Assembly (NCBI GenBank): GCA_016927565.1
Contig: JAFGMK010000024.1
Location: 6,105-70,104, forward strand
DNA: 64,000 bases
DNA from: Minisyncoccota bacterium
GTDB lineage: Bacteria > Patescibacteriota > Microgenomatia > PFEM01 > JAFGMK01
Direction: 5' to 3'
Shown piece by piece: positions 6,409 to 61,257 of this stretch; position 1 is the stretch's first letter; the number at the start of each line of letters is the position of its first letter. The notes below the pieces were generated by a model. That model worked only from the letters and a program-made list of their open reading frames with translations, did no database searches and was not told the DNA's origin. A program made the position numbers and the translations under genes.

Positions 6409-7383
6409 TCAAACAGCCGACAATTTGTCAAGCAAAGATCGTCCCCGGTCATGTTCCAGAATAAAACAGTGCCCGGTGATCGCCTCCGGCGGAATAAAGC
6501 CCAAAACCATCCGCCCGTCTTCAAGAAGACCTTCGTCAGGCGCTTTTATTAATTCTCTGACCGGTAAATGAATCTTAAAAAGACAGTTGCCAAAAAATCT
6601 TCCCCTCCTCCTTTTAAGATAATCCGGGGTGGTCATTCCCATTCCCAAGTCAAAAGGACTGGACTGCCTAAATTCCCCTGAAGTATACCTGGAACACAAA
6701 AGACCGATCGGCGAAACCGGCGCCTGCCTTATTAGCCATGCCAAGCCAACTTCCGGCTCAAATCTCCTTGCCAGACAGCCTCCGACTTTCCAGTGGAAAT
6801 CAATCGTTCGATAAGCCAAATTCTCAATCTTAAGATATTTTTCTAAACCGCCGGGTATTAAACCATATTTTCTGATGAGTTCTGCTTTTTCGTCAGTTTG
6901 CTCCAGCCACTCACCCCGATAAACCGTCTCCGACCCGTCACCCGAACTGATTCCCGCCAATGCTTTTTCCCAGGCATCCTGTCTTTCGGAAAACCGGCCA
7001 AAAATATGCTTCACTCCCCGCCAATCCCCGGCATGAATTGTTAATAATTCCGGATATTGAAGCTGGATTCTTCTTTGATCTTTTTCATCTATCTTGGCCT
7101 CCGCCAACCATCTGTCTAAAAATATCTGCGCCCGAACTGCCACTCCAATTTGTTGCACCGTCATCGGAAAACTCAAAATGAGCCGCGCCGCCTCGGCTGC
7201 CAAATCCCTTATCTGTCCCTCATCTTCTCCGAGATACATCTTCTCAACAATCTGCCGGACCATTCTCCATCTATCGGCTAGGGAAATTGTTTCTTCTTTA
7301 CCCCATCGTTTCAGCCGCTGTGCTTCAGTTGCGGCCAGTTTATAATTTGTCTCCCAAACTTCCGGTCCGTCTTTTATCTTCAT
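6409..7383 (-). CDS. hypothetical protein (324 aa)
   Basis: Uninterrupted ORF bracketed by the two 63-bp repeats. No motif recognised. Confidence 0.5.
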   Translation of the reverse strand: MKIKDGPEVWETNYKLAATEAQRLKRWGKEETISLADRWRMVRQIVEKMYLGEDEGQIRDLAAEAARLILSFPMTVQQIGVAVRAQIFLDRWLAEAKIDEKDQRRIQLQYPELLTIHAGDWRGVKHIFGRFSERQDAWEKALAGISSGDGSETVYRGEWLEQTDEKAELIRKYGLIPGGLEKYLKIENLAYRTIDFHWKVGGCLARRFEPEVGLAWLIRQAPVSPIGLLCSRYTSGEFRQSSPFDLGMGMTTPDYLKRRRGRFFGNCLFKIHLPVRELIKAPDEGLLEDGRMVLGFIPPEAITGHCFILEHDRGRSLLDKLSAV

Positions 7384-7621: not shown

Positions 7622-9520
7622 CTAACCCCAAAGTTCCCTCGTCAATTCAACATTTCTCGGATGAGTCAGAGTCGCCAGAGTTTCATCATCAAGATCATGA
7701 AGCCTTTGCCTAATAAAGGAGCTGTGAACATCCGACAAGGAGCCCATTAAAAAAACAGCCTGAACGCCATTATCAAAAACCCGGCCCATAACCGGAATCG
7801 CTTGATAAGCAGTTCCCAGCTCGCCCATTTGCAAATTTAAAACTGTCCGGATTCCATTTAGAAATTCGTGCCCTTGCGGTTCTGTTTCTTCGGTATAAAT
7901 GCCCCTAGCCCGATCAAGAGCATCAGTTCCCGTCAACCGACCCAAAGAAACAGTCAGACCCCGATCTTTAAATGCCTGACAATGAGCCAACAGCTTATCA
8001 GCTGTTGGCCTGCCGGCATCCCTGGCAGAATACAAAAAAATTCCCGCCTGACCCCTTGTCGCCTGGTGAACCATCTCCCGCCTGATTGCCGCCTTCCGCT
8101 CCAGATGCCTTTTTTCCGGATTGCCCCGATTAACACTAATCCCTACATAAACCGCGCCACCTCCAAACAGACTAGGAAACTGTCGCCCTGCTACCTCCCT
8201 TGCCGCTTCTTCATGGCCAACATGAATCGGCCCAAATTGTCCATGAAAATCAAGCACAGAAACCCCATTTCTGACTGTCCCTACACTGCGGGGTCGTTTA
8301 GTCCTTATCTCATGATCGTCAATCTGACGATTGTGTTTTCTCCAAACCGAATTATCCATCCCTAAAAACCGATAATAAGCCTCACTCCATTCAAAGGTGT
8401 GTAAACCTCGTAAGCGCATCTCTAAAATAAATTGGCCAATTAAAGAATGAGTAAACCCGGATAATTCCCCATCAACACCGCGGACATGAGAATTAAGTTT
8501 TTTAAAACCCCAACCTGCAAATGATTCCACTCCTCTCCCGGGAGAAAACTTAGGAACCAATAATTCCGACGGGGTAAAAGAAGCGCATAAACCCAAAAGA
8601 CTTTCCCTAGACAAAGCCAAAAGACGACGCCTAACCAAAGAACACATTTCTTGAGCCAACATCGCCCGATCAGTCACTGCCAGATTATTTTCCCCTCCCC
8701 TGTCAAGCCTCTCTCCCAAAGCTAAGGCTATTAACGGGATAATATCAGCCACCGAGGTTGATCTCAACGCCCCAACCTCCGAAGAACTTTCAAGAAAAAT
8801 GCCAAAAGTTTCGCTTGCTTTTGCTGCCGCCTGAGCAATCAAAACAAAATCTTGTTTTCGAGAGCCTTCCTCTCTTCCCAACTCTTGAGCACAAGCAGTC
8901 GAAAAATGTTCCAATTGAGCCACGCCATTCCAAGGACTATGCCAAGAAACATCTCTGCCAATCTGTTCCAAAGCCTCAATCCTTCTAAACTCTTCACTTC
9001 CCCAAACTTCACCCCGATCACTTAAATCATGATAAGCTGAATCCGCTAACGAAGAAGGTCCCGATCGAAATCCCTCCAGAGGCTTTATCTCTCCTCCTCT
9101 TAAAAACAAACCGGGGACAAGAACTGGATCAAGAAAGGCTAATCCAGCCAAAGACTGGAACCAACCGGCGATCGTCTCCGCTCTGACTCCCTGATCTAGC
9201 CAAACCCTAACATGCTCCCTGAAAGTCCTTGGTCCAACCGGATCCTTTCGGTTATAACCCATCGAAAAATGGGCAGCCGAACGATGAAGCCTCTCAAAAA
9301 CATTTACATCCGCACGAGAACTAAAAGCCAATGATCTAGTCAATAAACCAAAACCATCGGCCAGTTGAACCGTCAATGTCTGCTCCGGTGATTGTTCAAC
9401 TGCGATTACATACTCAGCAATCCGGCCTAGCCAAGTAGGACTTCTTAAAGCTTCAGGAGAAGCATTCAGGTCGCGAGCGTATCTTGCCAAAAGCAGGTTA
9501 TAACTTTCCGGCCTAGCCAT
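7622..9520 (-). CDS. hypothetical protein (632 aa)
   Basis: Long ORF. The C-terminal region has His-rich segments (LDFHGQFGPIHVGHEE). A sugar-active hydrolase or deacetylase fold is only a weak guess. Confidence 0.5.
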   Translation of the reverse strand: MARPESYNLLLARYARDLNASPEALRSPTWLGRIAEYVIAVEQSPEQTLTVQLADGFGLLTRSLAFSSRADVNVFERLHRSAAHFSMGYNRKDPVGPRTFREHVRVWLDQGVRAETIAGWFQSLAGLAFLDPVLVPGLFLRGGEIKPLEGFRSGPSSLADSAYHDLSDRGEVWGSEEFRRIEALEQIGRDVSWHSPWNGVAQLEHFSTACAQELGREEGSRKQDFVLIAQAAAKASETFGIFLESSSEVGALRSTSVADIIPLIALALGERLDRGGENNLAVTDRAMLAQEMCSLVRRRLLALSRESLLGLCASFTPSELLVPKFSPGRGVESFAGWGFKKLNSHVRGVDGELSGFTHSLIGQFILEMRLRGLHTFEWSEAYYRFLGMDNSVWRKHNRQIDDHEIRTKRPRSVGTVRNGVSVLDFHGQFGPIHVGHEEAAREVAGRQFPSLFGGGAVYVGISVNRGNPEKRHLERKAAIRREMVHQATRGQAGIFLYSARDAGRPTADKLLAHCQAFKDRGLTVSLGRLTGTDALDRARGIYTEETEPQGHEFLNGIRTVLNLQMGELGTAYQAIPVMGRVFDNGVQAVFLMGSLSDVHSSFIRQRLHDLDDETLATLTHPRNVELTRELWG

Positions 9521-9570: not shown

Positions 9571-10941
9571 CTAAGAATTGGCAGCGATAAATTTATAGCC
9601 TCTTCCCCTCAAAGTCACAATTCTACTCGCCGAGCCAACCTTAATCAGTCTCTTTCTTAGCTTACTAATTAACTGATCAATCGCCCAATCAGAATATTTA
9701 TCATACGAATCCTCTCCCCAAAGCACCTCGCCTAAGTTATCTCTTGTTTTTAAAACGCCCGGAGCTTTTAGAAAGAACATTAAAACATTGTATTCCTGAG
9801 TAGTGAATTTCTCTTCAACCGGCTGGCCCCGAAAAAGAATAGCCCCTCGCTCGGGACTGTAAGTTAAGTCCTGCGACGAGCCGGCTGTCATCACCACCTC
9901 TTTCTTACCTAGACAGACTTGCTCAAAAACCTCTCCATAGAGCCGCCATCGGCCATCCTCGGCTTTATAAATCAAACCAAGCTTACTTAAGAGATGATTC
10001 TCCAGGGAGGTTTCTTCTTCAACCCTATCCCCAGCAGCAATCCTTCTCAAAAGCGATCTTGCCTCATCAGAAAGCACTTCTAGAACACCCCCAGAAACCG
10101 CATTCAGCTCATAATGAGCCAAAATTTGTTTTTTAAGTTTGTCCAAGCCTACCTTTTTTCCATTAAACAGGGCAATTGTCCGAGCCGCCACCACAATCGA
10201 ATAAGGATGAGGCCCGCAACTCGCCTTGATCAAATTCTTTTCTTTGTCAGAAAACTTTCTCTTAAAACGAGAGGTAATCCTATCGATTAAATAATCAATC
10301 TCTTTTCTAAAAATCGGGATGTATAAAACATTCTGCAATAAAAGCTCATTAAGATCCTTATACCGGGCAATTTTATCCAAGTCGACAATCTCCTCCCGAT
10401 TTAAAAAAACAAAGTGAACTAACGGGGCAAATTTAAGCCATAGAAATTTTAAATTGTTATAAAAAACTCCATCAGCAAAGTCTAATTCATCAAACTCCCC
10501 CAGAAAAAAAACAATCTCTAAACCGCAATCAGCCACTTTTTTTACCAGTTCATTTACTTTTGACAGAAGCCGAGCGTAACTTAACTTATCTCCTTCAAAA
10601 ACTTTTAGATCCTTCTCAGAAATTACCCCACGGCACTCTTCTCTCGTCAGACAGGCATCAACCAAGCTTTTTCCAACTAACCTAAAATATCCCCGAGCCG
10701 ACTCTTCAATTAATTCTAACGGCTCAATATAAACCAATAAATAATCATTAAAATTAGAAATAATTTTAGGAAAAAGATTAATATTTTCGATAACAAATTT
10801 TGTCACAACTCTCCGGCCTGCCATTGGCACCCAAATCATTGTTACGCTTTCGCCTCTTTTAATCGGTTCGAAAACTAACTTGACTAAATCCTCAATCGTT
10901 TCTTTGCCCAGCGGGTAAAAAAACTTAGACTGCTGAACCAT
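9571..10941 (-). CDS. putative regulator: N-terminal ATPase-like domain fused to a C-terminal OmpR/PhoB-type winged-helix DNA-binding domain
   Basis: The C-terminus (TTQEYNVLMFFLKAPGVLKTRDNLGEVLWG...IDQLISKLRKRL...IVTLRGRGYKF) matches the OmpR trans_reg_C pattern (W-x-G ... TVRG.GY). The N-terminal part has a Walker-B-like IVFFLGEFDELD but no clean P-loop. Confidence 0.55.
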   Translation of the reverse strand: MVQQSKFFYPLGKETIEDLVKLVFEPIKRGESVTMIWVPMAGRRVVTKFVIENINLFPKIISNFNDYLLVYIEPLELIEESARGYFRLVGKSLVDACLTREECRGVISEKDLKVFEGDKLSYARLLSKVNELVKKVADCGLEIVFFLGEFDELDFADGVFYNNLKFLWLKFAPLVHFVFLNREEIVDLDKIARYKDLNELLLQNVLYIPIFRKEIDYLIDRITSRFKRKFSDKEKNLIKASCGPHPYSIVVAARTIALFNGKKVGLDKLKKQILAHYELNAVSGGVLEVLSDEARSLLRRIAAGDRVEEETSLENHLLSKLGLIYKAEDGRWRLYGEVFEQVCLGKKEVVMTAGSSQDLTYSPERGAILFRGQPVEEKFTTQEYNVLMFFLKAPGVLKTRDNLGEVLWGEDSYDKYSDWAIDQLISKLRKRLIKVGSASRIVTLRGRGYKFIAANS

Positions 10942-25808: not shown

Positions 25809-26561
25809 TTATTTTCCAATCAACCTCTTAAAACCTTCAAGAACTTCCACCGGCAAGGCAAAAACGACCGTGTTGGCCGGATTAGCCGTTGTTCCTTCAA
25901 TCGTCTGCAGGGTCCGCAAGGAGATTGCTCCGGATTTAGCCAGGTTATCAGCCGCCGACTGTAAATTCTTTGAGGCTTCAAGTTCACCATTGGCTCGGAT
26001 AATTGCTGCCCGCCTTTCCCGTTCGGCTTCAGCTTGTTTGGCCATTGCCCGCTTCATATCCGCCGGCAACTCAATATCCTGGATTTTAATCGAGGTCACA
26101 TTGATTCCCCAAGCGTTAGTTTCCTCGTCAACCAGTTTCTTAATCTCCTCGGAAATTTTCAGTCTTTCTGCCAGCAAGCTGTCCAGCTCAACCCCGCCGA
26201 TTACATCCCGCAATGCCGCTTGAGCATACTGAGAAACAGCATAGGAATAATTTTGAATTTTTAAAACTGCATCCTCTACCCGTTCGACATGGAAATAAAC
26301 CACCGCATTGATTCCAACCGGAACATTATCTTGAGTAATTACTTCCTGCTGAGGAATATCCACTGTCGTAATCCGAATATCAACCTTAATCAACCGCTGC
26401 AGCACCGGAATGATGAAGTTCAAACCCGGATCCAGAGTATTAGAATATTTTCCCAAAGTTAGAACGATTCCCCGCTCATACTGGTCAACCACCCTGACAA
26501 AGCGGATTGCCGCAATTCCAATTAAAACCAAAAAAACAAAAAAAACACTGCCAAAAAACAT
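25809..26561 (-). CDS. SPFH/band-7 (stomatin/HflC-like) membrane protein
   Basis: N-terminal TM, then a band-7 core (TQDNVPVGINAVVYFHV) and a coiled-coil/Ala-rich C-terminal region. Confidence 0.8.
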   Translation of the reverse strand: MFFGSVFFVFLVLIGIAAIRFVRVVDQYERGIVLTLGKYSNTLDPGLNFIIPVLQRLIKVDIRITTVDIPQQEVITQDNVPVGINAVVYFHVERVEDAVLKIQNYSYAVSQYAQAALRDVIGGVELDSLLAERLKISEEIKKLVDEETNAWGINVTSIKIQDIELPADMKRAMAKQAEAERERRAAIIRANGELEASKNLQSAADNLAKSGAISLRTLQTIEGTTANPANTVVFALPVEVLEGFKRLIGK

Positions 26562-26617: not shown

Positions 26618-26655
26618 ACGATCCGGGATCGTTTTCCTACCTACGATCCGGTAAA
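26618..26655. repeat. GATCCGGGATC palindromic element (degenerate copy E)
   Basis: cacgatccgggatcgttttcctacctacgatccgg, in the SPFH-fpg intergenic region. Confidence 0.45.
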
Positions 26656-37139: not shown

Positions 37140-37165
37140 AAAAGCCTCCTAAAAAGATTGTTACG

Positions 37166-37232
37166 AAAACAAAGATAACGATCGCGGCGGCGGAATCGGG
37201 GAAACTCCGGAATGTCAAAGAAATTGGGTAAA
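37166..37232. repeat. GATCCCGGATC-family element, internally deleted copy D
   Basis: aaaacaaagataacgatcgcggcggcggaatcggggaaactccggaatgtcaaagaaa. It shares both flanks (aaaacaaagataacgatc / ctccgga.tgt.aaagaaa) with copy A. Confidence 0.6.
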
Positions 37233-37289
37233 TTACCATGAAACTCATAATTGATTAAGCTCAAAATGTTTGCTAGAATAACCTTAACT

Positions 37290-37362
37290 TGCGGGGTAGT
37301 GTACGGCGGCACGTGAGGCTCATAATCTCACAGACCGGGTTCAACTCCCGGCCCCGCAACCA
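37290..37362 (+). tRNA. tRNA with anticodon CAT (Met or Ile-lysidine type); CCA encoded
   Basis: Hand-folded. Acceptor stem TGCGGGG/CCCCGCA, U8, D-stem GTGT/GCAC, anticodon stem TGAGG/TCTCA with loop CTCATAA, T-stem CCGGG/CCCGG with loop TTCAACT, discriminator A, then CCA. It lacks the three G-C pairs of an initiator. Confidence 0.65.
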
Positions 37363-37405
37363 AACAAAGAGAGCCTCTCCGGCTCTTTTTTGTTTGGTTT
37401 GTGTG
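37363..37405 (+). terminator. intrinsic terminator after the tRNA
   Basis: AACCAAACAAAGAGAGCC-TCTCC-GGCTCTTTTTTGTTTGGTTTG: a long hairpin followed by a T-run. Confidence 0.6.
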
Positions 37406-37430
37406 ATCTTGTGAACCGGCAAAACAAAGA

Positions 37431-37509
37431 TAACGATCCCGGATCATCTGCAGATTTCTTTTCCGGGATCGGGAAAGCTCCGGATTGTTAAAGAAAGTAA
37501 ATCGTTGCC
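37431..37509. repeat. GATCCCGGATC-family hairpin element, full copy A
   Basis: aaagataaCGATCCCGGAtcatctgcagatttcttTCCGGGATCGggaaagctccggattgttaaagaaag. A 10-bp perfect stem, a 17-nt loop, and a trailing CCGGATT. Confidence 0.7.
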
Positions 37510-37563
37510 AATAGCAGTTTTTTCTTGTTCAAACCACTTTTGCCTGATATAATTTCTTCACCG

Positions 37564-37635
37564 GCTAGGGTAGCTCAGGGGTAGAGCAATCGTTTCATAA
37601 GCGATGGGTCGCCGGTTCAAATCCGGCCCCTAGCA
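37564..37635 (+). tRNA. tRNA with anticodon CAT (Met/Ile2 type); no encoded CCA
   Basis: GCTAGGG-TA-GCTC-AGGGGTA-GAGC-A-ATCGT-TTCATAA-GCGAT-GGGTC-GCCGG-TTCAAAT-CCGGC-CCCTAGC-A. A canonical 72-nt cloverleaf. G1-C72 paired and no GGG/CCC in the anticodon stem, so an elongator type. Confidence 0.8.
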
Positions 37636-37647
37636 CAATAATTACTT

Positions 37648-39150: not shown

Positions 39151-39194
39151 CTAAATCAAAATCTCCGAAGCCTAACCTTATCCAAAATACCCTG

Positions 39195-39266
39195 TGCGCC
39201 TGCTTGGATTCGAACCAAGAACCCTCGACTTATAAGATCGATGCTCTACCGTTGAGCTACAGGCGC
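39195..39266 (-). tRNA. tRNA-Ile with anticodon UAU (reads AUA)
   Basis: Minus-strand fold: GCGCCTG-TA-GCTC-AACGGTA-GAGC-A-TCGAT-CTTATAA-GTCGA-GGGTT-CTTGG-TTCGAAT-CCAAG-CAGGCGC-A. Anticodon loop C-T-[TAT]-A-A. No encoded CCA. Confidence 0.8.
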
Positions 39267-39295: not shown

Positions 39296-41629
39296 TTATA
39301 ACTTGGCCCGCTGGGCAATTTCTGATTCCACTAACTGCCTGTCCTGACCGTATTTCAACCGGGAAAGATTCCTTACCATTTCCCCTACCCTGGGATCTTT
39401 CATCTTTTCCAAAGCAGCCATGTCCCGATAAAGATCAACTGAAAAAGGCGGCACCGGCTCATTCCTGACAATCGTTTTCATATAAATGTGGTAGCGCTCG
39501 ATATTCAGAAGATCGTCTTCAGCAAAAGTGGGCTGGAATTCATGAGTTAAATAAGAAGCATCATTCACTCCCACCCGAAAAGACATAATCGTTCCCACAT
39601 TTCCGAAAATGGCATTTTTAACCTCCTCATCCATCTGCCCGATAAATTGATTGGCAACGGTTAAATTCAGCCGGTATTTCCGGGCTTCTGAGAGAATCTG
39701 GGCAAAATCCGGAGTGGCAAAGTTTTGAAATTCATCAACATAAAGATAAAAATCGCGCCGCTGGTCCTCAGGAATATCCGCCCGGCTCATCGCCGCCATT
39801 AACAATTTCGGCACAAAAACCAAACCCAAAAAAGAACTGTTCTCTTCGCCGATCTTCCCTTTAGCCAAATTAATTATCAAAATCTTCCCTTCGTCCATTG
39901 CCCGCCGGAAATCAAAAGAAGACTTTGATTGGCCGATAATATTCCGCATTGTTTTATTGGTAACAAAGCGGCCGAATTTAGATACGATGTAGTCAAGCAC
40001 TTCGCTTTTATGAAAGTCTGAAGTCTGGGCAATCTGGTCGGTCCAGTAACGTTTAACCATCGGGTCTTTAACCTTAGGCAAAAGCTCCTGAACATATTTA
40101 GCATCAGTCAGGCAACGGACAATTTCGACGAAGCTGCTTCCCTCCTCACACATGACTGTCAACATGGCATTCCTGATCGCATGCTCAAACCGGGGACCGA
40201 TAATGCCGGTTTTATAAGGGTCATAAAGTTTGTACATTAAATTTATAATCGCCCCGGTAACAAAATGCTTTTGCTCTTCATTCTGAACTTCAAGCAAGTT
40301 AAAACCCATCGGCCTTTCGGTATCCGAGGGGTCAAAGTAAATTACATCCTCGGCTCTTTCCGGCGGAATAAATTCAAGCAGACTTTCCGCCAGATCATGA
40401 GGATCAATTAAGCAAATTCCTTTCCCGGCCCGAATGTCTTGAAGAATCATATCTTTTAAAAGCTCGGTTTTGCCGACCCCGGTTTTACCAATCACATAAA
40501 CATGGCGGCGGCGGTCCTTATCGCTCAGATAGACCGGCCGGCTCATTCCCCGGTAAGTCGATTTGCCGACATAAAGACCGCTCTTGGGAATCTGAACCGG
40601 CGCCGGTGCTGTTTTGGCATAAAGCCAGTGAATGTGAGGCGTTTCGACTGTTTTATTGGGAAAGTGAAAAATGGTTGCCAGCTCTTCTGAAGAAAGAATT
40701 GAGTGGCCCATTCCCATATAGACCAGCGGCATATAGCGATAAATAAAATCAATCATAAATAATTTTTTAAACCAGATCTTACTGGTTTTAAGCCCGTTCA
40801 GATTAGAGGAAAACTGCTCAAAAGAAGACTTGATGTTTTCCAGATGAGCTTCAGCCTGTTCCTCGGTGGTTGAAGAAACCACAATCCGAATCAAAGTCTC
40901 AAAACCGGGCTTACTGGTTTTACTTTCGATTGCTTCCAAAGTTTTAGCATCGACTTTAAAAGAAGCTTTTTCAACATCTGCCTCTTCCTTTTTTGTTTTG
41001 GAGATAAATGACTTGCCCGCACTCTGCCAACTGCTTCCGGCCGGAACTACATTAATTTGAATTACCGCCCCTTCTCCTTCACTCATCTTCGCCAGTGAAG
41101 TAGTAATCAGGGAAAGCGGGTCAGTTGCTAATTCTCGGTAAGACTTAAGAGGATAATAAGAATCTTTACTCAACTGAAGCTGGGCAAAGGCAACCTTCCC
41201 TTCCTGAGAAAAAATATTGTATTCAGAAACTTTCTTAAGTTCGGCAGACGGATAAGCCCCGTAAATTTGCTTTTCAATAAAATCCTGAAGATCCTTAGGA
41301 ACCGAAATGTAAAAGCGGATATCTTCGGGCCGGGCAACAATTTCAAAACAAAGGTGATTGGGAGGCTTAAGGTTTAAAAAATCGCTGCTTGTTTTAATTG
41401 AATTCAAAGACGCAAAAAACTGTTCGGCAGTATCGATTTTAGTTTCATTATTAAAAGGAACTGCCACCTGCAAAAGAACCGACTGAAGAGATCTTTCTTC
41501 CCGCTTCTGATTTCTTTTCGTCAGCAGGAAAAAATAAAGCCCAATCACCAATCCCAAAAATAAAAAGACCAGAACACCGATGACGGCAAGGAAAAGACCC
41601 AGATTGCCCGTAAGGGCTTCCATATTCAT
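39296..41629 (-). CDS. membrane-anchored P-loop NTPase of the FtsK/HerA/VirB4-TraG type (conjugation/type-IV-secretion-like ATPase)
   Basis: A single N-terminal TM helix, then about 340 aa of unknown domain, then Walker A YVIGKTGVGKT followed by ICLIDPHDL (like the HerA/TraD -DPKGE- segment) and Walker B LYVDEFQNF; 777 aa. Confidence 0.55.
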   Translation of the reverse strand: MNMEALTGNLGLFLAVIGVLVFLFLGLVIGLYFFLLTKRNQKREERSLQSVLLQVAVPFNNETKIDTAEQFFASLNSIKTSSDFLNLKPPNHLCFEIVARPEDIRFYISVPKDLQDFIEKQIYGAYPSAELKKVSEYNIFSQEGKVAFAQLQLSKDSYYPLKSYRELATDPLSLITTSLAKMSEGEGAVIQINVVPAGSSWQSAGKSFISKTKKEEADVEKASFKVDAKTLEAIESKTSKPGFETLIRIVVSSTTEEQAEAHLENIKSSFEQFSSNLNGLKTSKIWFKKLFMIDFIYRYMPLVYMGMGHSILSSEELATIFHFPNKTVETPHIHWLYAKTAPAPVQIPKSGLYVGKSTYRGMSRPVYLSDKDRRRHVYVIGKTGVGKTELLKDMILQDIRAGKGICLIDPHDLAESLLEFIPPERAEDVIYFDPSDTERPMGFNLLEVQNEEQKHFVTGAIINLMYKLYDPYKTGIIGPRFEHAIRNAMLTVMCEEGSSFVEIVRCLTDAKYVQELLPKVKDPMVKRYWTDQIAQTSDFHKSEVLDYIVSKFGRFVTNKTMRNIIGQSKSSFDFRRAMDEGKILIINLAKGKIGEENSSFLGLVFVPKLLMAAMSRADIPEDQRRDFYLYVDEFQNFATPDFAQILSEARKYRLNLTVANQFIGQMDEEVKNAIFGNVGTIMSFRVGVNDASYLTHEFQPTFAEDDLLNIERYHIYMKTIVRNEPVPPFSVDLYRDMAALEKMKDPRVGEMVRNLSRLKYGQDRQLVESEIAQRAKL

Positions 41630-42424: not shown

Positions 42425-43216
42425 TCAAATAAAATCCCCGCCCACTCCCCGCAATTTAGTTTTTGGGATCATTTCTGAAATCATTTTTTTAAAAGCTTTC
42501 AACTGGGAAACAGCAAAAGGCTCTATTTCATTGAATCCAGGGTCAAGGCAGTTTTTGGGTTGAAAAGACTGAAGAACCCAGGAGAAATCTCTAATTTTCC
42601 GACCGCAACCGGCAAACAGGTTTTTTAAATCCCGAGCCATTGTCAGCAAAACCTTTTCATCATGGATGGTCGGTACTATGGTTGTCCGGAATTCAAACGG
42701 CAAGCCAGAGTCTATTATCAACCGCATAGATTCCTTAATTCCAGCGGCTAACGATCCCGGATCGTCTGCAGATTTCGATCCTGGATCGGATTGCCCCCCG
42801 GATTTAATTCCAACTACATTTTCATAATCCGAAAATGTAGTCTTATAATCCATCGCCCAAAAATCTACCAGTTTTGCCTCAAGCAATTTTTTGATGACCT
42901 CAGGCCGACTACCGTTAGTTTCTATCATTATCTTAAAACCCAAAGCTTTAACCTTAGTTGAAAACCCCAAAAGGTCTGGCTGGAGAGTCGGTTCACCACC
43001 GGTAACCGCCACACCATCAATCCATTTGCTCCGCCGCTTCAAATCCGTCAAAACAATCTTCTCGCTGTGATGTTTCAGCTTTTTACTATTGATTTTCACC
43101 AGGTCGCGATTGTGGCAAAACGGACAGGCAAAATTGCAGCCCGGGACAAAGATCACTGAAGCAATCTTGGTCGGCCACTCGATCAGAGAGGTTTTTAAAT
43201 AACCGGCAATTTTCAT
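42425..43216 (-). CDS. nrdG: anaerobic ribonucleotide reductase activating protein (radical SAM, NrdG/PflA family) carrying a 20-codon in-frame insertion
   Basis: CNFACPFCHN radical-SAM cluster motif near the N-terminus. An internal GIK-SGGQSDPGSKSADDPGSLAAG-IKESM segment is encoded by a copy of the GATCCCGGATC repeat element. Confidence 0.8.
   Translation of the reverse strand: MKIAGYLKTSLIEWPTKIASVIFVPGCNFACPFCHNRDLVKINSKKLKHHSEKIVLTDLKRRSKWIDGVAVTGGEPTLQPDLLGFSTKVKALGFKIMIETNGSRPEVIKKLLEAKLVDFWAMDYKTTFSDYENVVGIKSGGQSDPGSKSADDPGSLAAGIKESMRLIIDSGLPFEFRTTIVPTIHDEKVLLTMARDLKNLFAGCGRKIRDFSWVLQSFQPKNCLDPGFNEIEPFAVSQLKAFKKMISEMIPKTKLRGVGGDFI
42748..42808. repeat. GATCCCGGATC-family element, copy B, inside the nrdG coding sequence and flanked by an 8-bp direct repeat TTAATTCC
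   Basis: ctaaCGATCCCGGATCGtctgcagatttCGATCCTGGATCGgattgccccccggattt. TTAATTCC occurs at 42736-42743 and 42804-42811. Confidence 0.7.
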
Positions 43217-43223
43217 AAAAACT

Positions 43224-43275
43224 AATCGATCCCGGATCCTCAGGTATTTCTAATCCGGGATCTTAAATCCCCAGA
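43224..43275. repeat. GATCCCGGATC-family element, copy C
   Basis: ctaatcGATCCCGGATcctcaggtatttctaATCCGGGATCttaaatcccc, in the nrdG-nrdH intergenic region. Confidence 0.65.
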
Positions 43276-43301
43276 TTAATTTTGGACTCTATGCCTTAAT
43301 T

Positions 43302-43562
43302 TTAAAGCTTATCAAGAATCGCCGACTCTTTCGGCACTTTTCCTCGCCATTCGGCCGCTATCTTGCCTTTATCATCAACCAGAATCATCGTCGGTGTCGC
43401 CATTACCTGATAAAAAGCCCCCTCGGCCATTCCCTCAATTTTATCAACATCAAACCATTCAATTTGAATCCTGACCTGGCTTTTATTTTCCAAATCCCTG
43501 CCCAATTTTTTAGCCGGAGGACATTTAGGACAATTATTTCTGGTAAAAATTTTTAAGATCAT
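43302..43562 (-). CDS. nrdH: NrdH/glutaredoxin-like small redoxin
   Basis: 86 aa. A thioredoxin fold with CPKCP redox motif. Located between nrdD and nrdG. Confidence 0.65.
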   Translation of the reverse strand: MILKIFTRNNCPKCPPAKKLGRDLENKSQVRIQIEWFDVDKIEGMAEGAFYQVMATPTMILVDDKGKIAAEWRGKVPKESAILDKL

Positions 43563-43579: not shown

Positions 43580-45733
43580 TTAAAACCGACCCTCATTTTT
43601 GTGACGATCGTTAAGCTCTCCTATCTTACCCTTATTCCAGCGGCTGATACGGGAATAAAAACCGGTCACTCGCGTCACCCCGTCAACTTCTTCCGAGCCG
43701 CACTTAGGACAAGCATCATGAAGGCCCCGTGTTGTCGCCAGACAACAATCACAAATTGTAAATTCCGGCGAAAAGGCAATCAGACCGTTCTGGGTTTGTT
43801 CAAAGGTTTTTTTGACAAAACTCGCAATCGAAACCGGATCCGGGTTCTGTTCCCCCAACCAGAGATGACTAATGGCTCCGGCATCAATTAAAGGATGAAA
43901 AAGGCCTTCTTTGGTCACTCTTTCAATCGGATCAATATTTTCGGAAATATTCAATTGGGTCGAGTTGGTATAGTAAATATAATCATCTTCCCATCGTCCC
44001 TTAATCACTTTCCGTGATTGATCAGGATAAAAACGCTTATCCAGTTTGGCAAAGCGATAAGTCAGTCCTTCAGCCGGAGTCTGTTCCAAAACATAATCCA
44101 TCTTATCCCGCCGGCTCATTTCTTTGGCCTTCTTATTGATGGCCGCCACAATCTTCAAACCCAATTTTAAAGCCTCGTTACTTTCATGCAGCTGTTGTCC
44201 CAGACAATACTCAACTGTTTCATTCACGCCGAAAATACCTACCAGAAACTTGGCTTTTTTAAAGCGGTAATACATTTCAGGATCATCCTTTTGCCGGGTT
44301 GTCAGCGAGCCGAGAGGACCCTGAAGCCCCATCTCAAGAAGTCGTTTAATAAACCGTCTTTTCTGTTGATGGGCTTTGGCTAAAAGTTCCATTCCCTTGT
44401 CAATTTCTTTAAACAGTTTTTCCGATTTACCCTTAGCTTTGTAAGCCATCCGAGGCAGATTCAAGGAAACGTTTTGCATTGCTGAATGGCGCATCTGCCA
44501 GGGTTTTTTGGCTTCCTCGAGATCTTTTTTATTCAGATTGAAAGAAAGCCGGCAGCACTCGGAAATCCGGGCTGTTTTTCCCCGATCCAAAACAAAATAA
44601 GTGTTGCCTCTTTCAGCTGCCACCCGCGAAGCCAGCCGGAGAAACTCCTTATGACCCGGAGTGGCCCAAAATTTTTCCGTAATGTGCAAATTCGGCTTCG
44701 GCCAGAAAAAGGGCCGGCCGGCCCCGTCTCCCTCCAGGTAAATTTCAAAAATGGCTCTTAAGAAATCCTGTGATTCTTTCTCGTAGTCCTGATAATTTTT
44801 GCCGGTATAAACTCCTCCGGGGCCAATGGCCGGAGTTTTGGCAAAATGATCCGGTACTTCCCAGTAAAGGTTAATATCTGAAAAAATTGCTTGCCCCCCC
44901 CGAGCTACATTCTGCATATTAAACTCAAATAAAAGCATTTGAGCCAGCTGCCTTATCTCGGCAAAGGGCATTCCCACCAAATAAGGCGCCATAAAAAGAT
45001 TGACCGCATCAAAACCAATTGCCCCGGCAAAATGAACCTGGAGCATCGCTGCCAGCTTAATAATCTGCAGTATTAAAACCTGAGCATGCTTTGCCGGTTT
45101 GGCCACTGCCAATGACGAGGCAATGTCTAAACCATACTTCTTAACATATTCAATCGATTGACCACAGCAATAAGGCCGATCAATGAAATCGAGATCATGA
45201 AGATGTAAATCCCCCCGAGCATGAGCCTCAGCCACTTCTTGAGAAAAAACTCGACGGAGAGCGTATTCTTTTTTGATATTTCGAGCCAAAGAGAGATTGG
45301 TAGCTTCGGTATTATGAGGAACATTGGCATTAATCCGATTTTGTTCCGTCAACATTTTATGGACATCATAAATCGGGACTCCTAAACGAACGTGCTTATA
45401 GTAATATTTTTCCAAGCCTCGAGATAATAATTCAGCATTAGTCATCTCCCGAATTAAATTGGTAGAAACATGTTTAACTTTGGAGTCAACGATTTGTTTT
45501 TCCACTTCCCGGGCAATCCTCATTGCCAGATATTCATCCATCCCGGTTTCAATAATCAGCCTTTTGGCAATTTGGGTCACATCCCATTTTTTTAAAGCCT
45601 CATCAGAAGTAGAAACAAAAAACATCACATCAGTGGCCTGATGTTTTTGGGCATTAGCCAGGTATTTAGCCTGCTTTCTGGTTAAGCCGCTGCCGTTTTT
45701 GCCATTTTGATATTTATCTATTTCGCTAGGCAT
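43580..45733 (-). CDS. nrdD: anaerobic ribonucleoside-triphosphate reductase (class III large subunit), with an N-terminal ATP-cone-like region
   Basis: HLHDLDF motif, a C-terminal zinc ribbon (CDCC...CPKC), and the glycyl-radical motif TRVTGFY; 717 aa. Confidence 0.85.
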   Translation of the reverse strand: MPSEIDKYQNGKNGSGLTRKQAKYLANAQKHQATDVMFFVSTSDEALKKWDVTQIAKRLIIETGMDEYLAMRIAREVEKQIVDSKVKHVSTNLIREMTNAELLSRGLEKYYYKHVRLGVPIYDVHKMLTEQNRINANVPHNTEATNLSLARNIKKEYALRRVFSQEVAEAHARGDLHLHDLDFIDRPYCCGQSIEYVKKYGLDIASSLAVAKPAKHAQVLILQIIKLAAMLQVHFAGAIGFDAVNLFMAPYLVGMPFAEIRQLAQMLLFEFNMQNVARGGQAIFSDINLYWEVPDHFAKTPAIGPGGVYTGKNYQDYEKESQDFLRAIFEIYLEGDGAGRPFFWPKPNLHITEKFWATPGHKEFLRLASRVAAERGNTYFVLDRGKTARISECCRLSFNLNKKDLEEAKKPWQMRHSAMQNVSLNLPRMAYKAKGKSEKLFKEIDKGMELLAKAHQQKRRFIKRLLEMGLQGPLGSLTTRQKDDPEMYYRFKKAKFLVGIFGVNETVEYCLGQQLHESNEALKLGLKIVAAINKKAKEMSRRDKMDYVLEQTPAEGLTYRFAKLDKRFYPDQSRKVIKGRWEDDYIYYTNSTQLNISENIDPIERVTKEGLFHPLIDAGAISHLWLGEQNPDPVSIASFVKKTFEQTQNGLIAFSPEFTICDCCLATTRGLHDACPKCGSEEVDGVTRVTGFYSRISRWNKGKIGELNDRHKNEGRF

Positions 45734-45774: not shown

Positions 45775-47745
45775 TCAAATATTTTTATTTCGATGCCGGT
45801 CCCTGAGTTCCGCCTTCTTGCCCCGCCCCCATGAACTGGTAAAGGTATAATAGCCGGTAATCCTCGTAATTCCATCTACCTTTCTGGAATGACAATAAGG
45901 ACAACTCCCCAATAATCCCCGAGCTAAACGCCGGCACTTTAAGCACAAGGTAAATTCGGGTGAAAGGGCAACTTGGGTATTTTGGGTCCGGTTAAAAGTC
46001 TTTTTAATTAACCGGCCGACAGAAGCAGGACTCGGCTCGCGCTCCCCTAACCAAAGATGGGTAATATTACCGCCTTCAATTAGAGGATGGAAAAGGCCTT
46101 CCTTTTCAATTCTGTCTAAGGGATCAATCTCGGCATCAACATCTAAATGAGTTGAGTTGGTATAATAAACTGAACCGGATTCAGGATCACCGTGAACAAT
46201 CTTAAGGGCTTGTTTGGGAAACCGGCTCAAATCAAGCCGGGCAAAACGATAGCAGGTTGACTCAGCCGGATCCTGTTCAAGAATGATTTTTAACCGGCTT
46301 TTTTTGCTTTCCTGATCGCAAAGATATTTCATGAAAGCCACTATTTTCAGACCAAATTTCAGCGCCTGATCGCTCTCATGCATCTTCTGGCCCAAATGCG
46401 CCCGAACACAGTCGCCCACCCCCAAGACACCGACCAAATAGGCCATTTTGGTAAAACGCAAATATGATTCTTTTTCACCCTCCTGTTTAACCGTCAACAA
46501 TCCCAAAGGGCCGGTTTCTCGCCGATCCAAGAGTTTTTTTAAGAAGGCTCCTTTTTGTTTATGAGCCTCGAAAACCAGTTGCATCCTTTTTCTGATCAAT
46601 TCAAAAAGCTTTTTTTCATTTCCTTTGGCCTGATAAGCAATCCTAGGCAAATTAAGAGAAATATAAGGAGCTGCGGAAAAACGCATCCGCCAAGGTTTTT
46701 TAGTGTCTTTTAAATCCTCACTGGAAAGAGTGAAAGAGACCCGGCAGCATTCAGAAATCTTGGCAGTTTTTCCCCGATCCAGCATAAAGTAAGGATTACC
46801 TGTTTTGGTCGCCACTTCGCAAACATGATTCAAAAACCGACTATGCCCCGGAGTGGCCCAAAACTTGTCGGTAATATGGAGATTGGGCTTGGGCCAAAAA
46901 AAAGGCGAACCCTGGCTGTCGCCTTTTTTATAAACGGAAAAGATTTGCCAAACAAAGCTCTGAGCTTCTTTTTCATAATCACCATAAACCTTGCCGGTAT
47001 ATTGACCCCGGGGACCAATAGCCGGAACCTTTTCAAAATGAGCCGGCACCTCCCAATAAAGATTGAGATCAGAAAAAATCGGCTGACCGCCATGAGGTCC
47101 GATAGTTTGATTAAATTGATGAATCAACTTTTGCGCCGCCTGATAGATTTCACTATCGGAGAGGCCTGTCAAATAAGGCGCCAAAAATAAATTAACCGCG
47201 TCCCAGCCGATCGCCCCGCCAAAATTAGCCCTGAGAGCCAAAGAAAACCGGTAAAGATGATCCAAAGCTGAGTCAATGTGAGCGGCCGGCCTGGTCGCCG
47301 CAAAACTGGCATAACGGTTAAGACCGTATTTTTTAACATACTCAACGCTCTGGCCGGAACAATAAGGCCGGTCAATAAAACCTAATTTATGAAGATGCAA
47401 ATCTCCCCGCCGGTGAGCCCGAGCCACTGATTTAGAATAAACCTTATTTAGGGCATACTCTTTTTTAACAAACTCGGACAGAGTAAAACTTGTTCCCTCA
47501 GGAGTGTTGGGCATATTGGCATCGCTCCGGCTACCTTCTTTCGCGATGACAGTCTCAATCTCCTCTAAAGAAAGAGAGACTCTTCCGTCTTCACCTGTAT
47601 CCTCAAAATGGAAAAGGCCATTCCCGTTACTGTTTTGGGAATGATTGTCTTTTTTCTGAACTTTAGGACCGGGTAATATCCGGGCCAATTGCCGGGAAAT
47701 TCCCAAAGAAAAATCGGTCACATCAAGTCGTTTTTTTTGAACCAT
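45775..47745 (-). CDS. nrdD: second class III ribonucleotide reductase paralog (no ATP-cone)
   Basis: HLHKLGF, a zinc ribbon (CLKC...CPYC), and the Gly-radical motif TRITGYY; 656 aa. Collinear with the upstream copy across most of its length. Confidence 0.8.
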   Translation of the reverse strand: MVQKKRLDVTDFSLGISRQLARILPGPKVQKKDNHSQNSNGNGLFHFEDTGEDGRVSLSLEEIETVIAKEGSRSDANMPNTPEGTSFTLSEFVKKEYALNKVYSKSVARAHRRGDLHLHKLGFIDRPYCSGQSVEYVKKYGLNRYASFAATRPAAHIDSALDHLYRFSLALRANFGGAIGWDAVNLFLAPYLTGLSDSEIYQAAQKLIHQFNQTIGPHGGQPIFSDLNLYWEVPAHFEKVPAIGPRGQYTGKVYGDYEKEAQSFVWQIFSVYKKGDSQGSPFFWPKPNLHITDKFWATPGHSRFLNHVCEVATKTGNPYFMLDRGKTAKISECCRVSFTLSSEDLKDTKKPWRMRFSAAPYISLNLPRIAYQAKGNEKKLFELIRKRMQLVFEAHKQKGAFLKKLLDRRETGPLGLLTVKQEGEKESYLRFTKMAYLVGVLGVGDCVRAHLGQKMHESDQALKFGLKIVAFMKYLCDQESKKSRLKIILEQDPAESTCYRFARLDLSRFPKQALKIVHGDPESGSVYYTNSTHLDVDAEIDPLDRIEKEGLFHPLIEGGNITHLWLGEREPSPASVGRLIKKTFNRTQNTQVALSPEFTLCLKCRRLARGLLGSCPYCHSRKVDGITRITGYYTFTSSWGRGKKAELRDRHRNKNI

Positions 47746-60765: not shown

Positions 60766-61257
60766 CTAAAATGTTCCTTCCAAAACTTTTTTTTCCGGCC
60801 GATCATCGTCTTCCGCCTCCAGAGTAATCAGAACTTTAAGCGAAGCAGCCTCAACTGTTTTCCCGGAAAAATCTAAAAGCCAACCGCCTTTTTTCTGCGC
60901 TAACTGCCCCAGTAAGACCATTTCTCCTTCCCGATTCAGCCAGGCTTGGTAAAAATGCCCCGGTTCAAGATCGGGCAAATCAGCCAAAATGGAATATTCT
61001 GTCCCGCTTTCCCGGCTCTGCCAGGTAACCAGTCCTTTCACCTTCCCGCTTTCAGGCTCAAAAAGGCCGAAATTATTTCCTTCTTCGGGAATCTCAATCC
61101 CTAACTGAGATTCGAGCTGTCGTTCTTCTTCCGGCAGAAGCGGGAGGCTGCCGTCCGGAGCCGCCGGCGCTTCGGTCTGATAGCGACGGAGAAAAAAGAA
61201 ACCCGCCACTGTCAAAGCAACCAGCCCAAAAATAACCAGTAATCCCCTACTCCTCAT
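60766..61257 (-). CDS. hypothetical exported protein (163 aa)
   Basis: N-terminal TM/signal segment. No motif. Confidence 0.4.
   Translation of the reverse strand: MRSRGLLVIFGLVALTVAGFFFLRRYQTEAPAAPDGSLPLLPEEERQLESQLGIEIPEEGNNFGLFEPESGKVKGLVTWQSRESGTEYSILADLPDLEPGHFYQAWLNREGEMVLLGQLAQKKGGWLLDFSGKTVEAASLKVLITLEAEDDDRPEKKVLEGTF

Follow-up and report, generated by a model that had tools for sequence, protein, structure and literature searches.

Repetitive extragenic palindromic (REP) sequences and their hairpin-forming doublets (REPINs) are short palindromic units that occur as singlets and as inverted doublets folding into a long hairpin (PMC3337134), and intragenic REPs, often located in genes of replication and repair, have already been described (PMC3733652). 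Rickettsia palindromic elements (RPEs) are found in-frame in unrelated housekeeping genes of a reduced genome, and their translated segments have been judged compatible with the protein fold (PMC10969869). [quoted passage not shown] Here we describe an insertion in a Candidatus Pacebacteria genome, a member of the candidate phyla radiation (CPR), in a window (the whole stretch of DNA that was analysed) of 64,000 nucleotides from contig JAFGMK010000024.1. The host gene is nrdG, which encodes the radical SAM activase of the anaerobic ribonucleotide reductase. We consider it probable, at roughly three chances in four, that this gene carries an in-frame copy of a REP/REPIN-like palindromic repeat, which is tolerated as a surface loop and whose family extends through the CPR bacteria that make up the Microgenomates group. 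This is our best reading because the repeat belongs to a dispersed family with members inside genes, and because the same palindrome flanks a gene resembling those of REP-associated tyrosine transposases (RAYTs). Genomes of CPR bacteria, or Patescibacteria, are among the smallest and most streamlined known.

Compared with the REP/REPIN-RAYT systems of Pseudomonas and enterobacteria, the CPR element is alike in occurring as singlets and inverted doublets, in having stems kept by correlated changes, and apparently in its association with a RAYT-like Y1 transposase gene, which is flanked by the same palindrome in the related contig L134, an arrangement that matches these systems as published (PMC3337134, PMC3733652). 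However, it is much smaller (13-nt arms, an 11-nt spacer, and a 37-nt core), it is the spacer and not the arm that is conserved across lineages, and there is no consistent GTAG tag. Its hosts are CPR bacteria, many of the recovered copies lie inside essential genes, and the copy number in the window is low. Like the RPEs, the element lies in-frame and stop-free, and is presumably translated, in nrdG and in the genes of related bacteria for DNA topoisomerase I (TopA), a UvrD-like helicase, and TsaD. RPEs, however, are about 100–150 bp long, use a single frame that yields a conserved peptide, and occur in Rickettsia only, whereas the CPR element spans 37–60 nt, is read in at least three frames or orientations giving three encoded peptides, and has no sequence similarity to RPEs. 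MITEs, in turn, possess the terminal inverted repeats of a parent insertion sequence (IS) and a constant target-site duplication (TSD), whereas the CPR element has a flanking repeat at the nrdG copy only. Overall, the element works like RPEs and intragenic REPs, and is best filed as REP/REPIN-like, not as an RPE. The GC clusters of yeast mitochondria are also GC-rich, palindromic, and mobile, inhabit an AT-rich compact genome, and are in some cases located in protein-coding genes. We found no description of in-frame hairpin repeats from CPR bacteria in the searchable literature, which does not prove that none exists.

The insert and its parts are the following (positions in the window):

42425..43216, minus strand: nrdG, anaerobic ribonucleotide reductase activase (radical SAM), 263 aa, supported by its open reading frame (ORF) and profile matches; host gene of the insertion.
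42735..42743, no strand assigned: left copy of the 9-bp direct repeat TTAATTCCA; the coding strand reads downstream ..A-G-I-K.
42749..42804, plus strand: copy A of the element, TAAC...CCGGATT, the stretch in common with intergenic copy B; most of the extra loop is encoded here.
42752..42764, plus strand: hairpin arm 1, CGATCCCGGATCG, 13 nt, itself palindromic.
42765..42775, plus strand: loop TCTGCAGATTT, 11 nt, conserved family-wide; it encodes K-S-A-D in nrdG.
42776..42788, plus strand: hairpin arm 2, CGATCCTGGATCG, 13 nt, with one central mismatch to arm 1.
42804..42812, no strand assigned: right copy of the 9-bp direct repeat TTAATTCCA; the coding strand reads upstream V-G-I-K.

The NrdG protein contains GIK-SGGQSDPGSKSADDPGSLAA-GIK, and the exact direct repeat brackets the insert with a period of 69 nt (23 codons), leaving 60 nt between its copies (42744-42803). 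A first-pass annotation had proposed that a repeat element was inserted here in-frame, with an 8-bp direct duplication at its borders. The ORF, the hairpin, and the dispersed copies described below confirm the observation and support its reading as an insertion, and the 60 nt in a stop-free ORF confirm that the frame is preserved; the flanking repeat is indeed present and exact, although its length is 9 and not 8 bp. The two arms, CGATCCCGGATCG and CGATCCTGGATCG, are 92% complementary and each of them is itself a palindrome; we define CGATCCNGGATCG as the palindromic unit of the element, occurring as singlet or doublet. On the mRNA strand the insert folds with −30.3 kcal/mol (z −2.9), being the most stable 60-nt fold within nrdG, and it ranks 4th in stability among the 50-nt windows across the 64 kb (z −4.5). 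No other hairpin of the window has a stem of 12 bp or longer with no more than one mismatch, and the insert's GC content is 0.60 vs 0.43 for the gene. No Rfam family matches the hairpin region. Readings of the hairpin as an integron attC site, a dif site, or a terminator were rejected, given that there is no R''/R' consensus and no T-run. The tryptic peptides expected from the insert are SGGQSDPGSK and SADDPGSLAAGIK.

Further copies are found elsewhere in the window:

37431..37486, plus strand: copy B, intergenic, about 80 nt upstream of tRNA-Met (37564-37636); covariance-model match of 31.6 bits.
37176..37213, plus strand: copy B', a paralogous flank that precedes the other tRNA-Met (37290-37362); it reads TAACGATC...CTCCGGAAT around a short middle that differs.
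43223..43277, plus strand: copy C, in the 85-nt spacer that separates nrdG from the thioredoxin-like gene; arms CGATCCCGGATCC and ATCCGGGATC, loop diverged.
26619..26651, no strand assigned: copy D, an intergenic single palindrome CGATCCGGGATCG with a partial second arm CGATCCGG.

Positions 42749-42776 and 37431-37458 are identical at 27 of 28 nt (E 1.5e-8 within the window), and copies A and B both end in CCGGATT, their longest common exact words being 15 and 12 nt. Copy B retains the 5' flank, arm 1, the loop, and the CCGGATT tail of copy A, with arm 2 partly decayed. Copies C and D are weaker than B and both are intergenic; A, B, and C are doublets and D is a singlet. Copies B, C, and D are located just upstream of tRNA-Met, nrdG, and the ORF 25809-26561, respectively. 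The 11-mer GATCCCGGATC, allowing at most one mismatch, has 12 strand-matches in the window vs 1.0 expected from dinucleotide shuffles, none of which (0/100) reached 12. The window has a general tetranucleotide bias, with CCGG 4.4-fold, CGGC 3.3-fold, and GCCG 2.9-fold over the mononucleotide expectation, and with ACGT, GTAC, TACG, and CTAG depleted 6–10-fold; the CCGG excess does not explain the GATCCCGGATC motif, because shuffles preserving dinucleotides already allow for it. None of the other strong inverted repeats of the window could be linked to the element family or shown to be an insertion. Regarding the surroundings of copy B, both tRNA-Met(CAT) genes (37290-37362 and 37564-37636) are preceded by a duplicated block, AAAACAAAGATAACGATC...GGRAAASCTCCGGAWTGTYAAAGAAA (region 37140-37647), with the full hairpin only in the second block and a terminator-like hairpin at 37356-37405.

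Beyond the window, we scanned a metagenome collection with a pattern that described the architecture only (C....CCG....G-TCTGCANATTT-C....CNG....G). This retrieved 34 loci, 32 of them perfect or near-perfect hairpins with the loop exactly TCTGCAGATTT and with arms of the type CACC(C/T)CCG(A/G)GGTG or CACTCCCGGAGTG, in contigs of 39–49% GC; the remaining two loci are GC-rich and do not form hairpins, roughly as many as chance alone would give. No match to the exact 25-mer shared by copies A and B was found in the metagenome collection, and a loose scan of genome contigs with CGATCCCGGATCN{8,20}CCNGGATC gave 120 chance matches in GC-rich genomes and none in Pacebacteria. Across nine distinct hairpins, compensatory double changes affect 10 of the 13 stem pairs and 99.1% of the cells are paired, a level that none of 500 shuffles reached (slid controls pair at 44–52%). 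A covariance model built from these hairpins recovers copy A with 54 bits (E 1.7e-11) and copy B with 31.6 bits, as well as further copies in CPR-like loci, vs a maximum of 26.7 bits in unrelated control loci totalling 328 kb. It places four or more copies in each of the contigs L153, L137, and L165, about one per 2–3 kb. Together with the match to copy B, these scores bear out the initial proposal that the extra segment of NrdG is a copy of a dispersed hairpin repeat.

The genes that host the hairpin in-frame encode DNA topoisomerase I, with as many as three or four occupied sites; a UvrD-like helicase; TsaD; a protein of 248 aa from an unknown family; and two NrdGs. The peptides fall in three classes of frame and orientation: ..TPEV-KSAD-TSGV.., the same class as DPGS-KSAD-DPGS in our NrdG; ..TPEV-SADF-TSGV.., the class of the NrdG homologue P0003; and HPRGEICRHLGG. 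Direct reading of the 37-mer core shows five of its six frames to be open. TopA proteins about 80–85% identical to P0164 differ by the presence or absence of the hairpin at three sites, and some of the copies have decayed to single arms. Hairpin-bearing TopA recurs in 16 sequences; they come from independent assemblies of JGI, ENA, and NCBI and argue against an assembly artefact. The TopA relatives are named Woesebacteria, Microgenomates, or Patescibacteria, and the taxonomy of the hosts is taken from these named homologues. Judging from these sequences, the family is distributed among CPR bacteria belonging to the Microgenomates group, with a conserved loop and variable yet complementary arms. 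Two other groups of loci deserve mention. In contig L162 (2300-2460) three palindrome types lie adjacent to each other, a doublet of CGATNCNGGATCG, a hairpin of the CACC type whose loop is TCTGCAGATTT, and a GCCGGCAGGCAGG core of the type seen in the NrdG homologue P0111, which suggests clustered or nested insertions, as in bacterial interspersed mosaic elements (BIMEs). Loci L002, L030, and L091, from CAZGOA01 (an uncultured gammaproteobacterial metagenome-assembled genome, MAG, GC 0.35–0.39), matched a loose CGATCCCGGATC...CCNGGATC pattern and may represent an unrelated repeat family with a similar palindrome.

The link to a transposase comes from contig L134. Its ORF 875-1525 encodes a protein of 216 aa that matches NCBIfam NF047646 (REP_Tyr_transpos; E 2e-13, 50.3 bits) and Pfam Y1_Tnp (22.8 bits), and the best solved relative is TnpArep of E. 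coli (PDB 4er8), with the HUH and catalytic-Tyr motifs aligned. The RAYT-like assignment of this ORF is drawn from these Pfam, NCBIfam, and PDB matches. A doublet, TAA-CGATCCAGGATCG-...-TAA-CGATCCTGGATCG, with the arm type and the 5' flank of the nrdG copy, is located 40 nt upstream of it, and a CACC-type hairpin 760 nt downstream. Palindromes of the nrdG type were also found in L137, L140, L153, L162, and L165, and there, as in L134, they form both doublets and singlets; the L165 doublet combines the arms of the nrdG copy with a loop of 11 nt, and its 3' flank, GATTGC, is again that of the nrdG copy. As for possible tags, CGTC stands directly after arm 1 of copy A and of the two L134 copies and is absent from B, C, and the CACC-type copies, and GYAG occurs 4–5 nt upstream in three metagenome copies only.

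An alignment with 120 NrdG homologues, the nearest of them 56% identical, showed the extra segment in none, and homologue searches with our NrdG and with P0003 gave no close relative above 56% identity. The 20-aa segment is thus absent from nearly all NrdG orthologues, in line with the first-pass annotation. The insertion site, between "VGI" and "K-E-S-M-R-L", is a loop of variable length, with about seven residues in most homologues, none in a few, and unrelated longer inserts in many. We examined the DNA of seven NrdG homologues with long inserts. In P0014, P0120, P0027, P0081, and P0003 a GC-rich insert at this same loop contains the gene's most stable fold; no hairpin was found for K-rich inserts such as that of P0002. 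Peptide repeats of the form "abcd....abcd" in P0129 and P0017 were rejected as hairpins, being 8-nt tandem repeats instead. The clearest case is the pair P0111 and P0096, whose nrdG genes are near-identical outside two insertions (87% of the alignment columns are identical, gaps counted). P0111 has a clean palindromic insertion of 21 nt at the same loop and, elsewhere in the gene, a 141-nt in-frame GC-palindrome insertion with the same core, and both are lacking in P0096. This pair, together with the folds in other homologues, documents recent in-frame insertion of GC-rich palindromes in CPR nrdG, and the loop is a recurrent acceptor of GC-rich hairpins in several CPR lineages.

P0003 (63% identical outside the loop) has the insert CACCTCCGAGGTG-TCTGCATATTT-CACCTCGGAGGTG, with the same 13/11/13 geometry as ours and a loop identical at 10 of 11 positions, but with different arms and the opposite orientation relative to nrdG. 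The first-pass annotation had named a homologous segment at the same site of orthologues as a finding that would speak against a lineage-specific insertion; P0003 does bear a hairpin in the same loop, but its opposite orientation and different arms look like recurrent insertion and not common descent. On the 4.6-kb contig of P0003 (L127), the thioredoxin-like gene also has an in-frame hairpin, which shares this architecture and has a different loop, of 9 nt. Hairpins of the nrd operon were seen in the thioredoxin-like gene and nrdG of L127, in the spacer between these two genes in L123, and in nrdG of L130. The L130 hairpin at 6837-6874 (nrdG aa ~43-55) marks a third NrdG insertion site, with the hairpin GCACCTCCAAGG-14 nt-CCTTGGAGGTGG encoding HLQGAHSATLEV; its arm core CACCTCC/GGAGGTG corresponds to anti-Shine-Dalgarno and Shine-Dalgarno sequences, and the same holds for the L127 copy and its arms. 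At other variable sites of CPR NrdG and TopA there are in-frame short tandem repeats instead of hairpins (GAGATGCA x4, CAAAGCTG x4, and ATACTAC x3), located in the L130 gene 6709-7455 (aa 191-202), the L131 gene 1016-1768 (aa 190-201), and L142 TopA site 3; at the protein level these mimic the peptide repeats of the hairpin type.

Apart from the insert, the protein has the attributes of a normal NrdG, as first annotated. It scores 177.5 bits on TIGR02495 (NrdG2) vs a cutoff of 131.15, matches both Radical_SAM and Fer4_12 of Pfam, and, in comparison with 82 homologues, keeps 16 of 16 invariant columns, that is, the CX3CX2C cysteines C27, C31, and C34 and 13 others. The closest PDB match to its AlphaFold2 (AF2) model is PflA (3cb8_A, TM 0.71–0.76), indicating a glycyl-radical activase fold. 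By these sequence criteria it can be taken as a bona fide NrdG, and the gene at its present locus is most likely intact and functional. The AF2 model (82 homologues) has a mean confidence (pLDDT) of 92.8 and shows a helix at 128-134, coil at 135-155 (pLDDT ~55 at 141-150), and a helix at 156-170; the sequence alignment with PflA is ungapped up to GIK138, equivalent to VGVS145 of PflA. The prediction for the insert is therefore a disordered loop on the outside of the half-barrel, with a helix on either side. This agrees with the surface loop expected beforehand, the extra residues 135-155 being modelled as low-confidence coil, and with a tolerated insertion as far as the model, the invariant columns, and the NrdG2 score can tell. 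We infer that the insert is translated and harmless, and that NrdG is still active.

With the identity of the repeat, its family, its frame, the predicted disordered loop, and the recurrent insertion elsewhere in hand, its spread can be pictured as follows. The mobile unit would consist of two 13-nt palindromic arms, the 11-nt loop TCTGCAGATTT, and short flanks (TAA... on one side; ...GATTGC or CCGGATT on the other). Copies would spread as single-stranded DNA (ssDNA) hairpins, and the mobilising enzyme, we infer, is most likely a REP-associated tyrosine (HUH/Y1) transposase. Those that landed in-frame in permissive surface loops would persist, because five of the six element frames are stop-free. 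In nrdG, the antisense reading ..DPGS-KSAD-DPGS.. would add some 16–23 residues rich in Gly, Ser, Asp, and Pro between helices 128-134 and 156-170. If this REPIN-like reading is correct, essential genes of CPR bacteria (nrdG, topA, the uvrD-like helicase gene, and tsaD) carry tiny hairpins that are read through as loops, and selfish DNA in protein-coding genes, as seen in Rickettsia and some REP families, would extend to a further bacterial radiation, and a very large one. This hairpin family would account for some of the unusual insertions that are specific to lineages in CPR proteins. Peptides of the form ..xxxx-KSAD-xxxx.., ..xxxx-SADF-xxxx.., or HPRGEICRH.. arising from a 13/11/13 hairpin would serve as an annotation signature, and the natural filled/empty pairs offer a means of studying RAYT-type spread and the tolerance of loops to insertion.

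Several points weigh against a REP/REPIN-like element. The RAYT-like scores of the L134 protein are below the curated cutoffs (50.3 vs 80 and 22.8 vs 23 bits), and there is no RAYT gene within the 64-kb window, an absence that is uninformative because RAYTs are typically single-copy. The 64 kb of genome that were read contain only four to five visible copies, one of them intragenic. No empty-site allele of our nrdG was found in the databases, because the nearest homologue is only 56% identical. The 9-bp flanking repeat of the nrdG copy, with a chance rate of about 0.3%, is unexpected for a Y1 transposase, and the perfectly kept stems and conserved loop could reflect selection for a function and not mere selfishness.

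The first alternative follows the original proposal: a DDE transposase would have mobilised a MITE, whose arrival added 60 nt and duplicated the 9-bp target TTAATTCCA, the ancestral peptide being VVGIKESMRL. The exact repeat around the hairpin fits this well, since a random 37-nt core is flanked by an exact direct repeat of 9 nt or more at only 0.1–0.6% of the window positions. The short loop that the model requires is present in a few homologues (P0042, P0019, and P0048), and the similarity between copies A and B extends over 56 nt (42749-42804), beyond a minimal insert of 48 nt. However, no comparable flanking repeat was seen at B, C, the L127 copy, or the distinct metagenome copies (70-nt flanks), about 15 copies in total, with at most chance-level 6-mers, and filled/empty pairs show no clean duplication. 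Apart from the hairpin there are no terminal inverted repeats, and the window shows no parent IS. The same palindrome flanks the RAYT-like Y1 transposase gene of L134, and Y1 transposases, the enzyme family of the RAYTs, are not known to make a TSD.

The protein family also disfavours the duplication. Against a profile of 119 homologues, excising 16 aa gives 376.9 bits vs 369.1 for the full length and 362.2 for the 23-aa excision that a TSD implies, and the latter lowers the TIGR02495 score from 177.5 to 168.4 bits. The 16-aa excision leaves VVGIKSLAAGIKESM, which aligns ungapped with AVRIRNQGLIVKKSM of P0004. In addition, SLAAGI fits the family pattern xL[AVI]xx[IV] before K-x-S, the AF2 helix starts at L156, and both GIK copies have counterparts in orthologues (NIK/RIR for one; AVK/RVK/RIK for the other). 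Part of the "duplicated" peptide (SLAAGI) thus looks ancestral, and if both GIK copies predate the insertion the empty site would read ..GGAATTAAATCCTTAGCCGCTGGAATTAAG... For these reasons, with flanking repeats missing at other copies and a profile that prefers the 16-aa excision, a TSD of a MITE-like element is not established here. We regard TTAATTCCA as a doubtful target duplication, and the MITE scenario as possible but clearly second to a REP/REPIN-like origin.

A second alternative is that the hairpin is a selected nucleic-acid signal, either a site for a dimeric protein on the arms or an mRNA or ssDNA structure modulating the expression of the nrd operon and tRNAs. The invariant loop, stems that covary perfectly across lineages, the position of copies B, C, and D just upstream of genes, and the nrd-operon hairpins of several genomes (L127, L123, and L130) would all be in keeping with a signal. 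But the genes that contain copies are many and unrelated, and the copies take either orientation and three different frames. Close relatives differ in having them, some copies are reduced to one arm, Rfam has no family for the region, and the RAYT association points to mobility, so that we find a signal unlikely. Slightly less probable still is a related idea, that the hairpins are a maintained nucleic-acid device, whether a domesticated RAYT-REPIN pair acting on ssDNA or RNA, or an excised or bypassed signal with the mature NrdG lacking the insert. If this were true, the GGA-AUU-AA sites flanking the nrdG copy would be the take-off and landing sites.

It is also conceivable that no mobile insertion took place, and that an old variable loop came to resemble copy B by gene conversion or templated repair from 5.3 kb away. 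The loop is indeed hypervariable in length within the NrdG family, and other variable sites have simple tandem repeats, not hairpins. However, dozens of unrelated loci and genomes share this architecture and loop, the GC content of the segment departs from that of the gene, and templated copying from B would itself be a copy-paste insertion; we consider this very unlikely.

Bypass of the insert has known precedents, as the ribosome skips the byp elements of yeast mitochondria, which break the reading frame, and likewise hops in T4 gene 60. In nrdG, GGA ATT AA is present on both sides of the hairpin as matched take-off and landing codons, and the identical 9-nt sequences flank a stable hairpin (−30 kcal/mol), so that the ribosome might hop from GGA-AUU-AA to the identical site 69 nt downstream, or the RNA hairpin might be excised. 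Nevertheless, the 69-nt gap is an open in-frame stretch in which no stop follows the take-off codon, none of the ORF copies breaks the frame (ORF-spanning detection would miss such copies), an excised or bypassed element need not be in-frame, and other copies have no matched flanks. Unlike the byp elements, the CPR hairpins keep the frame and are presumably translated, and skipping is highly improbable. Equally improbable is a hairpin segment spliced into nrdG by the assembler or by amplification, given that, although the protein is known from a single assembly (one member, one contig) and palindromes can provoke chimeric reads, the exact words in common with copy B (15 and 12 nt) are below assembly k-mers, the insert is in-frame and stop-free in a permissive loop, and analogous hairpins are found in the 16 TopA sequences of independent assemblies.

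Upstream of nrdG, on the same strand, are the other genes of the operon:

43302..43562, minus strand: thioredoxin-like gene of the nrd operon (Pfam Thioredoxin_3), directly upstream of nrdG.
43580..45733, minus strand: nrdD, anaerobic ribonucleotide reductase, the substrate of NrdG (PF13597, 1.7e-143; TIGR02487, 434 bits).

The location of nrdG downstream of nrdD and the thioredoxin-like gene is shared with contig L128, and the NrdG protein is 100% identical to one NCBI protein from a Candidatus Pacebacteria MAG (75.9-kb contig). Two full-length NrdD paralogues stand in tandem upstream of the thioredoxin-like gene and nrdG (43580-45733 and 45775-47745, both minus; TIGR02487 434 and 392 bits), and the same tandem pair is found in the related contigs L123 and L128. 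Other very stable GC-rich folds occur inside ORFs of the window at 7981-8030, 2281-2330, 61131-61180, and 9841-9890 (50-nt windows, z −4.3 to −5.8), and may be in-frame palindromic insertions of different families. A tRNA-Ile with anticodon TAT was called by ARAGORN at 39194-39266 (minus); the opposite strand gives a sub-threshold Rfam match to Plastid-ycf2, probably a mirror artefact. Finally, downstream of nrdG there is a 777-aa homologue of TraG/VirD4-like coupling proteins (DUF8128/DUF87; 39296-41629, minus), whose synteny is conserved in three CPR contigs, namely the window, L128 (11509-13842), and L129 (5512-7558).

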